Assembly: GCF_057098645.1 (NCBI RefSeq)
Contig: NZ_CM169472.1
DNA length: 64,000 nt
Reading direction: 5' to 3' (one strand)
Shown: positions 3,001 to 9,000 of the stretch, one piece after another
Layout of the letters: each line of letters starts with the position of its first letter
Numbering within the stretch: the first letter of the stretch is position 1
Made by a program: the position numbers

Positions 3001-6000
3001 GTATACCGTACAAGGATGTGGGAAAATTCTTTTAAAGAATGGCGAACAAATAACTCTGCATGGCAACTGTATTATATTTTTAAAGCCAATGGATATTCAC
3101 TCTTATCACTGTGAAGGTTTAGTCTGGGAACAGTACTGGATGGAATTTACCCCCACCAGTATGATGGATATTCCCGTTGGTCAGCAAAGCGTTATTTATA
3201 ATGGCGAAATTTATAATCAGGAACTCACCGAAGTTGCTGAGTTAATAACTTCACAAGAAGCAATAAAAAATAATCTGGCAGTCGCTTTTCTGACGAAAAT
3301 TATTTATCAGTGGATTTGTCTTATGTACGCAGACGGTAAAAAAGATCCACAACGGCGGCAAATTGAAAAATTAATTGCCACTTTACATGCCAGTCTGCAA
3401 CAACGCTGGAGCGTAGCTGATATGGCTGCCACGATCCCCTGTAGCGAAGCCTGGTTGCGTCGCCTGTTTTTACGCTATACCGGCAAGACGCCGAAAGAAT
3501 ATTACCTCGATGCGCGTCTGGATCTGGCGCTATCGCTATTAAAGCAACAAGGAAACTCGGTTGGCGAAGTCGCTGATACGCTCAACTTCTTCGACTCCTT
3601 TCATTTCAGCAAAGCCTTTAAACATAAATTTGGTTATGCGCCGTCAGCCGTGCTAAAGAATACGGACCAGCACCCAACGGATGCCAGTCCACACAATTAA
3701 CGTAACTCTGGCCAGTACGCTTTGTTGGCCTCCAGCAACTCATCCAGAATAGCTTTGGCGACCGAGGCGCTCGGTACCGTTTTCGATAACGTAATCGCCT
3801 GCCACAGGTGCTGATATGAACGCTGTTCCCAGGCGTCCACGACCAGTTTTTCCACCGCCACTTGCTGACTCATTAACCCTTTCTGAAACTGCGGGATATC
3901 GCCGACCACCAGTGGTTCTGGTCCGTTGTGCCCGACCAGACACGGGATCTCGACCATCGCTTCATCATCAAAGTTATGAATTGCCCCGTTGTTAGGCACA
4001 ATCAGCAACATCCGCTCCTGAGTGTTGAAGGCAATTGCCGCCGCCAGATCGACGATGTATGACGCATGTTCGTCAATTTCCAGCTTGCCCGCCGCTGAAT
4101 TTCCTGCCGCCGTAATGGCGCGGCAAGCATCGAAAACCTGTTTCTCGCGATGTTCCATCACCTCATTCGCGCGGGTATGTTCAGGGTTGGAATGCTGAAC
4201 AACATAATCCGGGAAGAGATAATATTTCAGATAGGTGTTTGGTAATGTACCCGGGTCCAGTGCCTGGACATCCCGCGCTTTTGCATAGGTGTCGTTCCAG
4301 CTCGCTTCAGTATGTGTATCTTGCTGCGGTGGAACATAACCGTGCTTAGAGACATATTGCCGCAGCTGGGGCATCAGGTCGTTGCCCTGCAAATCTTCAA
4401 TTGATGTCCACCAGCCAAAGTGGTTCAGGCCGTAGTAGCGCACGCGCATCTGTTTGCGATCTTGCAGCCCAACAATTTGCGCCATCCGGCTTTCAATACC
4501 GATTGGCATGTCACAGATGTTGAGGATTTTCGCATTCGGGCGCAGACGACGCGTGGCTTCTGCGACAATGGCTGCCGGGTTGGAGTAGTTGAGCATCCAG
4601 GCATTTGGTGAATATTTTTCCATATAATCCACCAGTTCCAGGACGCCGCCAATGGAACGCATGCCGTACGCTATTCCGCCGGGTCCGCAAGTTTCCTGAC
4701 CAACAACGCCGTGGCGCAGCGGGATTTTTTCATCCAGTTCGCGCATCGGGTATTTGCCGACGCGGATGTGCGCCATGACAAAATCAACGTCGCTGAATGC
4801 CACTTCAGGATCGGTGGTGTAACTAAACTCAATGTCCGGCGCTTTCTCTTTAAGGATGACTTTACAGGCTTCGGCAATCACTTCCTGCCGCGCACCATCG
4901 TTATCATAAAATTTCAGTGCACGAAGCGGGAAACGGTCCTGATTCGCCAGGAGCATCAACACGATGCCTGGCGTAAAGGTGCTTCCACCGCCAGCGACAA
5001 CCACTGAGAATTTGGTCATTATACTGCCTCCGTAATGGCAACATTTTCTGCTGATTGATGAGAATTAATTAAGCTATCGAGCTGTTCACGCAGCTGGGAT
5101 ACATGCAGACCAATGATCACCTGAATGGCATCGCCACTACGGAAGACGCCGTGCGCTCCCAGCTTTTTAAAGACTTCGTCATCCAACGTTTGTGACATGT
5201 CATGCAGTGCAATACGTAAACGCGTCGCGCAATTGTTAATGCTGGAGATATTGCCGACCCCGCCCAGGGCTTGCAGGATACCGGCAGCCTGATCCAGCTC
5301 TTTTTTTGGCTCTGCCGCGGTGGTTTGGCCTCGCGAGGCTTTGTATTCGGCTTTTGAGTAGAGTTTCACTTCCGCATCTTCACGTCCCGGCGTGCACATG
5401 TTGAATTGCAGAATCAGGGTGCGGAAAACCACGAAGTACAGCAGGGTAAAGCACAACCCAATGGCGATTTGGGTCAGCATCATATCCGCGTGGTTGCTGA
5501 ACATCGGGATCCAGTTTTGCGGTAAAACCTGGTCAATCAGACCTCCGCCCATGTTGCCCACCACACCAAAGAGATACATTACGGTCGACATTGAGGCCGC
5601 CAGCACGGCGTGTACCGCAAACAGCAACGGTGAAATGAACAGGAAGGTAAATTCCAGCGGTTCGGTAATTCCCACCAGCATGGCGGTTAAGGTTGCGGGA
5701 ATCAGCAAGCCCGCCACTTTTACCCGATTTTCCGGTGCGGCAGTGAAGTACATCGCTAAAGAAATGCCCACGGCACCAAAGATTTTTGAGTTACCGTGCA
5801 GGGCAAAACCGCCTTCCGGGAACAACGATTTCAGCGGCTCGGCGCTCAAACTGAACTCTTGCAGATGCTGCGCCCAGTACATCTGAATGCCGCCTTCAAC
5901 AGCTGCCGGACCAAAGATAAACGGTCCGTAGATGAAGTGGTGTAAACCGGTTGGGATCAGAATACGTTCGAGGAAGGTGTAAACCCAGATCCCAAGCGCA

Positions 6001-9000
6001 CCCGCCGAACGCAGGAACGCTTGCAGAGATTCAATCCCCATTTGTACTTTTGGCCAGCCGAGCAATGTCAGCCAGGCACAGGGGATCATCACCAGGAAGG
6101 CGATAATCACCACATAAGACGTCCCCTGGAAAATGCCGAGAAAAACCGGCAGTTTTTTATCGAACAGACGGTTATGCAGCGCCGTCACAATGCCGGAAAT
6201 GATAATTGCGCCGATAATGCTGGTATCGAGGGTTTTAATCCCAGCCATCATTGTCAGACCGCTACCTGCCACCGCGTCCTGAGTGAAATCGACGCCGAAG
6301 TAGCTTCCCCAGGTCATTCCCATCGCATTGATGAAATAGTTCCAGGTCAGGAAACTCACCATCACCGCCAGACAAGCACGTCCCTGCGCTTGCTTAGCAA
6401 GGCCAATGGGTAAACCGACAGCAAAAATCAGCGGCATATTACGGAATACCGTCCAACCGCCCTCTTCAATAATGTGTACGATTTGCGCGAATAAACTGTT
6501 CGGATCGGTCAGTGATTCCCCGACAAACATCGGGTTTTGCAGCAAGATGGCAAGACCCACCACAATCCCGGCGAAGGGAAACAGCAGCACTGGCGTGAAC
6601 ATCGCGCCGCCAAAGCGTTGAATTTGACTGAGCATTTCCACATCCTCTTTTCTCAATTCTGTAAGTAGGAAGCCTGATTGGTTATGCGGCAGGCCTGGAG
6701 CGAGGATAGGAAGATGCGATCGGCAGAACATGACGACCCAATGGGATTCGTGATCGCTTTCATGCTTTTCGTTGGGCGGTAGAGATCTACGTTTTCGCGA
6801 AAAAGTAGACATCTGTGAGCACTGGTACACAGCATCGAACACATCTTTAAAAAAAAGATGTTTTTTCAATCGATTAAGCAGAACTTGTGGGCGCATTACC
6901 CGGGCTTGCAGGCAAAAAAGAGATCTAGAGATGATCTACAAAAGCATTGCGGAGCGGTTAAGAATTCGACTTAATTCCGCAGATTTCACGCTAAACAGCC
7001 TTCTTCCCGGTGAAAAAAAGTTGGCGGAAGAATTTGCGGTATCGCGGATGACCATCCGTAAAGCGATTGACCTGCTGGTAGCGTGGGGGTTGGTGGTCCG
7101 CCGCCACGGCAGCGGCACTTACCTGGTGCGCAAAGATGTACTGCATCAAACCGCCAGCCTGACCGGGCTGGTGGAGGTGTTAAAACGGCAGGGAAAAACA
7201 GTCACCAGCCAGGTGCTGATTTTTGAAATCATGCCTGCGCCTCCGGCCATTGCCAGCCAGTTACGGATTCAAATCAACGAGCAGATCTACTTCTCCCGTC
7301 GCGTTCGTTTTGTGGAAGGGAAACCGCTGATGCTGGAAGACAGCTATATGCCGGTAAAACTGTTCCGTAACCTTTCGCTGCAACATCTGGAAGGGTCGAA
7401 GTTTGAATATATTGAACAAGAGTGCGGGATTTTGATTGGCGGTAATTATGAAAGCCTGACGCCGGTGCTCGCCGATAGACTGCTGGCGCGGCAAATGAAG
7501 GTAGCGGAACACACGCCACTGCTGCGGATCACCTCGTTGTCATATAGCGAGAGCGGGGAGTTTTTGAATTATTCAGTGATGTTCAGAAATGCCAGCGAAT
7601 ACCAGGTGGAGTACCATTTACGGCGACTCCACCCGGACAAGAGTTAACCGATACTCCAGAAGAGCACCGCCAGTAATTGGGGGGTGATAATGCGCAGGAA
7701 CATCACTAACGGATAGACAGTGGCGTAAGAGAGCGCCGCCGCACCGCTAGTTGGATGAAGATTATTAGCAAACGCCAGCGCCGGAGGATCGGTCATGGAA
7801 CCTGCCAGCATCCCGCACATGGTCAGGTAATTCATTTTGGCTAACATCCGCGCCAGAATGCCAACAGTAATCAGCGGAACGGCGGTGATCAGGGCACCAT
7901 AACCAATCCAGCTTAGCCCTTCGCCATTGACCAGGGTATTCACAAAATCCCCACCAGATTTCAGACCAACGACCGAGAGGAACAGCACGATCCCCAGCTC
8001 CCGCAGCGCGAGGTTGGCACTTGGCGGCATAAACCAGTACAGCTTGCCGATACTGCCGATACGCCCGAGGATCAACGCCATAATCAGCGGACCGCCCGCC
8101 AGCCCCAGTTTCAACGCGGCCGGGAATCCCGGCACAAAGACGGGAATAGAACCTAACAATACGCCAAGCCCGATGCCAATAAACACAGGCAGCATCTGAA
8201 CCTGTTGCAGTTTTTGCTGCGCATTCCCCAGCACATTGGCAACGGCATCAATTGCGGACGGACGCCCCACCAGGTTGAGGATATCGCCGAACTGCAGGCT
8301 GATATCGCCACTGGCGACCAGTTCGACCCCGGCACGGTTCAGGCGCGAGATAACAACGTCATAGCGTTCTTTAAAATGCAGGTCGCGAATACGCTTACCA
8401 AGCACGTTTTCATTGGTGACCACCACACGCTCGACGCGCAAATCAGTGCCTTTCGTGGACAGCGAAGTATCGACCTCCTGACCAATCACCAGTTGCGCAT
8501 TATGTAAATCCGCTGGCTGACCCACCAGATGCAGCAAATCGCCCAGTTGGATAATGGTATCTGGCGAAGGAACTTTTAGGGTTTCTTCGCGTTTCAGACG
8601 CGAGCAGATAATTTTGTCGCCGTTGAGAATCGGTACATCTTTAATGGCTAAATCATGCAGGTTAGGGTTCTCAACGCGAATATTGATAGTCCTGATCAGC
8701 GCGCCGCCATTGGTGCGTGAAGACTCGTGCTGCTGGGCTTCTGTCTCGACATTGACGCGGAAAATAACCCGCAACATCCACATGGTGAACAAAATCCCGC
8801 AAATGCCGAATGGATACGCCATCGCGTAACTCATCCCCATCTGATCGACCATTTCCATTGGTGTACCCAGGTCGCGCAAGATCTGCTGCCCTGCCCCCAG
8901 CGCTGGCGTATTGGTAACCGCACCGGAGAAAATCCCCAGCACTACCGGCAGTGGAATATCAAACAGTTTATGCAGGATGGCGGTAACCAGACCACCGATG

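Follow-up and report, generated by a model that had tools for sequence, protein, structure and literature searches.

An uninterrupted Escherichia coli glv locus, probably an intact copy of the enterobacterial alpha-glucoside phosphotransferase module that is disrupted in K-12

Is the glv locus of Escherichia coli, which is disrupted in K-12, a complete alpha-glucoside phosphotransferase system (PTS) where its genes are open? The question is posed by a stretch of DNA of 64,000 nucleotides from contig NZ_CM169472.1 of NCBI RefSeq assembly GCF_057098645.1 (the window, to whose numbering all positions refer unless stated otherwise). It holds glvG, for a glycoside hydrolase family 4 (GH4) 6-phospho-alpha-glucosidase, glvCB, for a fused PTS EIICB transporter, and, divergent from them, the GntR-family regulator gene yidP. 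A first-pass annotation of this DNA had taken the two glv genes to be uninterrupted and had noted that their K-12 counterparts are annotated as disrupted or cryptic. Our data on the integrity of the genes, their families, residue conservation, purifying selection, conservation of the module and the lesions of K-12 make it probable that E. coli has here an undamaged version of the alpha-glucoside PTS module of enterobacteria, and suggest that glv could be functional in the window strain.

A search of the window for open reading frames (ORFs) returned both genes uninterrupted on the minus strand at the coordinates first proposed, glvG at 3697-5019 (440 aa) and glvCB at 5019-6635 (538 aa, with an ATG at 6635). 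The frame of glvCB stays open upstream to 6896, giving a maximal ORF of 625 aa. That the transporter nonetheless starts at the ATG at 6635 follows from the TIGR02005 alignment, which runs from residue 2, from the 535-540 aa of its orthologues and from RefSeq, which places the start there too. A Shine-Dalgarno sequence, AGAGGA (6643-6648, minus strand), stands 7 nt from this ATG (8 nt from the GAGG core), which bears out the good ribosome-binding site (RBS) that had been noted. The glvCB-glvG junction (5017-5031, minus strand) combines an RBS, GGAGG (5031-5027), with a stop/start overlap, TAATG (5021-5017), and is a predicted operon-type junction with the usual layout of a translationally coupled operon. 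RefSeq annotates both coding sequences (CDS) in E. coli O145 str. RM9872, to which window 3600-7000 is 100% identical by megablast against 5,426 complete E. coli genomes. Their names there are 'PTS sugar transporter subunit IIB' (WP_000952116.1) and '6-phospho-alpha-glucosidase' (WP_000160119.1), and on either side of the pair lie yidL, a convergent gene of the AraC family, and yidP, a divergent one of the GntR family. Over its entire length the window matches RM9872 at 99.95-99.99% identity, with one extra insertion sequence (IS) element far from glv. The 3' ends of yidL (plus strand) and glvG (minus strand) overlap by 4 bp at 3697-3700, which leaves no room for a terminator, and a scan found none between the two genes.

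The identities of the two ORFs go beyond chance, since Pfam returned E-values of 1e-66 and 1e-56 for the GH4 domains of GlvG and 5e-71 for PTS_EIIC in GlvCB. GlvG carries PF02056 (Glyco_hydro_4; 224 bits, residues 6-184), the N-terminal Rossmann NAD-binding domain, and PF11975 (Glyco_hydro_4C; 192 bits, residues 195-415), both full length and above Pfam thresholds. Against the K. pneumoniae 6-phospho-alpha-glucosidase 6DUX it aligns over its full length without gaps at 89% identity (E = 3.9e-276), and against B. subtilis GlvA (1U8X) end to end, again ungapped (E = 9e-225), with roughly three quarters of the aligned residues identical as read from the alignment. ORF, Pfam, PDB alignment, RefSeq and motifs thus agree on an intact glvG, orthologous to aglB of K. 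pneumoniae and to glvA of B. subtilis. Residues G10-G-G-S13, Cys169, Asp170, His200 and Tyr263 are identical in the 1U8X and 6DUX alignments. An N-terminal GxGS is the dinucleotide-binding motif of GH4 enzymes, and in B. subtilis GlvA the Mn2+ ligands are Cys171 and His202, Asp172 adjoins the cysteine, and Tyr265 is catalytic. These roles reportedly go back to Rajan in 2004 and Yip in 2007, and their assignment here rests on alignment to solved structures. GlvG lacks none of these GH4 residues, a defect that the first reading had allowed for. It also has ICDMPIG at residues 168-174, and the CDMP within it recurs in three orthologues examined; CDMP is said to mark phospho-alpha-glucosidases as against other GH4 specificities (Hall, Pikis and Thompson in 2009, reportedly).

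The transporter is equally well placed. Pfam divides GlvCB into an EIIC domain (PTS_EIIC, residues ~10-346) and an EIIB domain (PTS_EIIB, ~453-482), and detected no EIIA domain in it. On the TIGR02005 model, 'alpha-glucoside-specific PTS transporter subunit IIBC', the protein scores 957.9 bits against a cutoff of 607.3, and it falls below the cutoffs of the sibling models for PtsG (glucose), NagE (N-acetylglucosamine, NAG), MalX (maltose) and Tre (trehalose). A GITE motif lies at residue 322 and CATRLR at 469 (Cys469); GITE is an EIIC motif of Glc-family EIIs, and the cysteine of a CATRLR-type motif is the EIIB phosphorylation site. Pfam, TIGR02005, motifs and RefSeq agree on an intact, AglA-like alpha-glucoside permease. 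The earlier identification of the pair as GH4 enzyme plus fused EIICB therefore stands, Pfam, TIGR02005 and the PDB alignments being in agreement.

What, then, distinguishes this locus from that of K-12? In MG1655, glvG is annotated as a pseudogene of 815 bp, and glvB (161 aa) and glvC (368 aa) appear as separate CDS. Alignment of window 3600-7000 with K-12 showed 20 substitutions and one gap over 3.4 kb, with 98.6-99.3% identity outside the lesions. K-12 lacks a 508-bp segment of glvG (3919-4426, minus strand; codons 198-367, including His200), a deletion that is out of frame. Because the 8-bp repeat GAACCACT opens this segment and is present again directly downstream of it, the sequence indicates that the deletion was probably mediated by microhomology. 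The second lesion is one of the 20 substitutions, the 19 others being set apart from it: glvCB codon 369 (5529-5531, minus strand) is CAG (Gln) in the window and TAG (amber) in K-12, the substitution falling at 5531 (codon 7498-7500 in the extracted K-12 region). Since this in-frame amber splits the transporter, whose total length is 1,617 bp in both window and K-12, the K-12 genes glvC and glvB are one gene. The first reading of the K-12 genes as disrupted was thus right, and the alignment that had been suggested as a check located exactly two K-12 lesions, both absent from the window. In a supE background, a glutamine-inserting amber suppressor would restore the wild-type residue and a full-length EIICB in K-12.

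Selection on the two genes was assessed among six intact alleles (window, O157:H7, ST38, enterotoxigenic E. coli (ETEC) H10407, a B-strain derivative and Ecol_881), with the transporter gene also extracted from two carriers of the 508-bp deletion, O103:H2 and K-12. Pairwise dN/dS (Nei-Gojobori) among the six ranged from 0.03 to 0.12 for glvG and from 0 to 0.125 for glvCB. Among segregating codons, 32 were synonymous and 9 non-synonymous in glvG, against 48 and 5 in glvCB. This argues that both genes have been under purifying selection, and against a long-standing pseudogene status.

The module is also conserved beyond the species. Homologues of GlvG occur across the Enterobacterales at 79-89% identity, all named 6-phospho-alpha-glucosidase, and the order of a divergent GntR/UTRA gene, then EIICB, then GH4 recurs in Enterobacter hormaechei, Citrobacter rodentium and Pantoea ananatis, whose EIICB proteins are 80%, 72% and 75% identical to that of the window, respectively. 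In E. hormaechei the module occupies the same chromosomal site, adjoining yidE and ibpAB, as it does in C. rodentium, with yidL, yidK and yidJ; in P. ananatis its chromosomal context is unrelated. Upstream of its EIICB gene, C. rodentium carries a tandem pair of GntR/UTRA genes (1641-3123 of the extracted locus), of which the one beside yidE is 75% identical to YidP and the transporter-adjacent one only 56%, which points to a duplication or replacement of the regulator in that genus.

How common is the intact state within E. coli? Of the 5,426 complete genomes, 4,284 have the glv locus and 1,142 (21%) lack the whole module. The 508-bp segment, and with it an undeleted hydrolase gene, is kept in 1,652 (30%), and by difference about 2,630 (48%) carry the K-12-type deletion. 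The K-12 amber allele was found in 348 genomes, mostly laboratory derivatives, and the CAG allele of the window in 3,230; these counts are exact matches over a 57-bp probe, and about 700 remaining genomes have other single-nucleotide polymorphisms nearby. In a spread sample of genomes keeping the 508 bp, 28 of 30 looked normal, one had a frameshift and one an IS-mediated truncation. The figure of 30% is an upper bound for 'intact' because such further, independent lesions occur among the keepers of the segment; a frameshift is present in strain WI2, and glvG is truncated by an IS-mediated event in 1332KP. In the latter, the CDS at 3530-4849 of the extracted locus, annotated as 'RNA-guided endonuclease TnpB family protein', is a chimera of GlvG residues 1-281 and a C-terminal fragment of TnpB, with yidI through yidL missing alongside. 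It is a predicted IS200/IS605-mediated truncation of glvG under a misleading product name. In ETEC H10407, glvG is intact and yidL has largely been replaced by a degenerate IS200/IS605 transposase remnant (1-377 of the extracted locus). Public databases already contain both proteins exactly as the window encodes them, each on at least 1,000 contigs, under the names '6-phospho-alpha-glucosidase' and 'PTS system alpha-glucoside-specific EIICB component'. A pangenome study lists the hydrolase as an accessory gene (PMC6968650). In Touchon et al. (PMC2617782), an excerpted table of genes tied to repertoire differences between E. coli groups includes glvC; we read the list as genes missing from B2 strains. 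The E. coli B2 type strain is reported to be negative for palatinose, turanose, maltitol and methyl-alpha-glucoside (PMC4334874).

In the module-less genomes, window 3668-7597 (3,930 bp), which takes in glvG, glvCB and almost the whole of yidP, is replaced by 49 bp (9069-9117 of the compared E. coli locus). What is left of yidP there is its last ~50 bp, beyond the yidE stop, and yidL has a different 3' end and is shorter (867 vs 894 bp). The module-less state has the look of a deletion more than of a site that was empty from the start. Because glvG, glvCB and yidP are lost together in these genomes and are linked in other genera, the three behave as a unit. The adjacent GntR regulator that had been pointed out, yidP, is of the GntR/HutC type; its linkage is kept in other genera, and it is lost together with the pair.

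Pfam, RefSeq and the conserved linkage identify yidP (6931-7647, plus strand) as the gene for a GntR/HutC-family regulator of 238 aa, which has a GntR winged helix-turn-helix (PF00392, residues 3-64) and an effector-binding UTRA domain (PF07702, residues 87-224); YidP is presumed to be the regulator of the glv operon. Candidate sites for such control were sought in the intergenic region by an inverted-repeat search and by alignment of four sequences, one per genus. A 34-bp imperfect palindrome at 6781-6814, AGATGTCTAC...GTAGATCTCT, is a candidate YidP operator. Its half-sites TGTCTA/TAGAC are conserved in Enterobacter and Pantoea, and C. rodentium has changed both sides, to TGTATA/TATACA; over four sequences this conservation is suggestive. 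A block reading CATGA-N6-TCACG (6749-6764, minus strand) is a candidate CRP site. The alignment shows no variation at most of its core positions (CATGA, TCAC), and it matches 7 of the 10 core positions of the CRP consensus, TGTGA-N6-TCACA. About 60 bp downstream of the centre of this site lies TATCCT (6703-6708, minus strand), a candidate -10 hexamer whose TATnnT is conserved in the alignment. These three conserved elements would serve, respectively, as the operator for YidP, the site for CRP and the -10 box.

For the window strain we infer substrates, EIIA partner, regulation and expression as follows. GlvCB would take up alpha-glucosides such as methyl-alpha-glucoside, isomaltose and the sucrose isomers palatinose, turanose, trehalulose, maltulose and leucrose, and would phosphorylate O-6 of the glucosyl moiety via Cys469 of EIIB. 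Because no EIIA domain was detected in GlvCB, a trans-acting EIIA would be needed to supply the phosphoryl group; Crr (EIIA-Glc), whose gene is not in the window, is the presumed donor, itself supplied by EI and HPr. GlvG would hydrolyse the resulting 6-phospho-alpha-glucoside to glucose-6-phosphate and the aglycone by the NAD+/Mn2+-dependent oxidation-elimination of its family; for GlvA, PMC10628242 cites this redox-elimination mechanism as well as alpha-specificity. YidP would probably bind the intergenic palindrome and keep the operon repressed as long as its UTRA domain is free of inducer. Activation would come from CRP, the conserved CRP-like site suggesting catabolite control. The strongest indirect support comes from PMC5309279, which, citing Pikis et al. 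2006, reports that aglA and aglB of K. pneumoniae are enough for E. coli K-12 to use isomaltose, methyl-alpha-glucoside and sucrose isomers. The rest of the E. coli PTS thus suffices, and the only parts K-12 lacks are the two genes that are intact here. PMC5309279 calls the K-12 homologues 'cryptic or nonfunctional truncated proteins', and 98.9% of K. pneumoniae clinical isolates are palatinose-positive (PMC3877295).

Several observations weigh against a working system in the window strain. A simple scan found no consensus sigma-70 promoter in the yidP-glvCB intergenic region. Loss within E. coli has taken five routes (508-bp deletion, amber codon, frameshift, IS-mediated truncation and whole-module deletion), and such repeated, independent loss argues that selection for the system is weak or niche-specific. 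Our literature searches found no expression, growth or other experimental study of an intact E. coli glv. Classical biochemical tables reportedly give E. coli as negative for acid from alpha-methyl-D-glucoside, which would be unexpected if the system were expressed in 30% of strains. The want of a consensus promoter, the repeated loss, the classical negative test and the failure to find an alpha-glucoside phenotype of E. coli in the literature would also fit genes that are intact but silent, as in bgl, ordinarily unexpressed and giving a phenotype only after an activating mutation such as loss of YidP. So would the state of the B-strain derivative T7Express, in which yidP is annotated as frameshifted (6013-6508 of the extracted locus) and glvCB and glvG are intact, the type of change that would de-repress a silent operon. 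However, dN/dS of ~0.05 over ~3 kb among divergent intact alleles indicates effective purifying selection, so the genes must at times be expressed, and the conserved CRP-like site and -10-like element are spaced at a class-I distance. The scan for sigma-70 promoters and terminators yielded overall no more than shuffled controls, and we do not take its result as evidence against a promoter, because CRP- and other activator-dependent promoters usually fail simple consensus scans. The low dN/dS and the conserved regulatory elements speak against permanent silence, and we regard silent genes as the main rival, though an unlikely one.

The system may instead be functional on a different substrate, whether maltose, maltitol, another alpha-glucoside, or one related to trehalose as in some Glc-family EIICBs. 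Identity between the EIICB and the enterobacterial orthologues that were compared reaches only 72-80%, and specificity varies within the family: in E. coli the B. subtilis GlvA/GlvC pair handles more sugars than its Klebsiella counterpart, among them panose, isomaltotriose and some sugar alcohols (PMC5309279). We consider a different substrate improbable, as GlvCB lies far above the TIGR02005 cutoff and below those of the equivalog models for glucose, NAG, trehalose and maltose (MalX), and as GlvG shares 89% identity with its Klebsiella homologue.

A further proposal concerns the transporter. The full-length EIICB locus was kept in all carriers of the 508-bp deletion sampled, and in O103:H2 and K-12 the EIICB has changed at few amino acids or none, the K-12 amber aside. 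The retention may reflect a recent deletion or continued use. The transporter might be kept for a role independent of the hydrolase, such as uptake of another substrate or PTS-linked signalling, a notion to which we give little credence. If it were true, the intact pair in lineages of enterohaemorrhagic E. coli (EHEC) such as O145 and O157 would confer a niche-specific ability to use plant- or food-derived sucrose isomers.

Last, the genes could be open yet already dead, an incipient pseudogene through missense or regulatory change, as the decay of the locus elsewhere in E. coli and three substitutions private to the window relative to the five other intact alleles (GlvG A64E and D257G, GlvCB V216I) might suggest, but this is very improbable: the Klebsiella and Bacillus enzymes also have Glu64 and differ from each other at position 257 (Gln, Asp), V216I is conservative, all catalytic and motif residues named above are intact, and the exact proteins recur on the many contigs counted above.

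An intact alpha-glucoside PTS module, the reading we prefer, fits well among characterised systems. AglA/AglB of K. pneumoniae, in which AglB (6DUX/6DVV) is an NAD+/Mn2+-dependent phospho-alpha-glucosidase, has the same order, EIICB then GH4, and the same sizes, ~540 and ~440 aa; beyond the close match of the hydrolases, the EIICB belongs to the same TIGR02005 subfamily, likewise with no EIIA domain detected, a comparison made at the level of the subfamily. The differences are host species and chromosomal site. The glvC-glvB-glvG genes of K-12 are the same locus in the same position between yidL and yidP, and differ by the 508-bp glvG deletion and the amber at Gln369, neither of which is in the window. 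In the maltose and alpha-glucoside PTS of B. subtilis, glvA (malA) and glvC (malP) likewise encode a GH4 6-phospho-alpha-glucosidase and the same kind of EIICB partner; as expressed in E. coli, that pair differs in having a wider substrate range than the Klebsiella pair. Control there falls to GlvR, an activator of the RpiR type whose gene lies between the other two, in place of a divergent GntR/HutC protein, and the gene order differs from that in the window. The bgl operon of E. coli resembles glv in joining a glucoside PTS permease to a phospho-glycosidase and in being variably present or decayed and possibly silent, but it acts on beta-glucosides with a GH1 hydrolase and the BglG antiterminator, whereas glv has alpha-glucosides, a GH4 enzyme and a GntR regulator; that glv too may be silenced is offered purely as a hypothesis. 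The locus is, in sum, a textbook orthologue of a characterised system, correctly annotated and widespread, and the K-12 defect is already well known.

Elsewhere in the window, the extra element relative to RM9872 is a copy of IS2 at 36776-38104, with an InsC-like ORF at 36821-37231, an InsD-like ORF at 37189-38094 and imperfect inverted ends of 33 nt (36784-36816 and 38065-38097). It is absent from RM9872, which is otherwise 99.98% identical, and splits a 2.4-kb hypothetical gene that is intact there, so the window belongs to a close relative of RM9872 and not to that strain. That gene belongs to a strain-specific island between yieH and phoU (~35850-43950), which by the RM9872 annotation also carries a gene for a pentapeptide-repeat protein and, disrupted by an internal stop, a pseudogene of a type III effector. 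At this position K-12 presumably has cbrBC, yieKL and the cryptic bgl operon; if so, the window strain is without the beta-glucoside PTS operon and has kept the alpha-glucoside one. The D-galactonate operon is not in the cbrA-yidA interval (~13700-14400), where RM9872 has a 657-bp hypothetical gene between cbrA and yidA. In the module-less E. coli compared, dgoT, dgoD and dgoA follow directly after cbrA, and the dgo genes appear to be missing from the window lineage at the cbrA-yidA site.

Taken as a species, E. coli makes the intact state of glv ordinary, not special to the window strain, and K-12 is a poor reference for the locus. A sizeable minority of strains, including O157:H7, O145, ST38, ETEC H10407 and B strains, encodes a complete alpha-glucoside PTS. 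If it is expressed, such strains would use isomaltose, palatinose, turanose and other sucrose isomers, which K-12 cannot. Should YidP be a repressor, B strains might express the glv operon constitutively, and they may already carry what was put into K-12 from Klebsiella or Bacillus. The relevance of this is modest and concerns strain-specific metabolic models, the food and feed ecology of EHEC, and engineering. With at least five independent routes of inactivation in one species, glv is also an example of ongoing gene decay.

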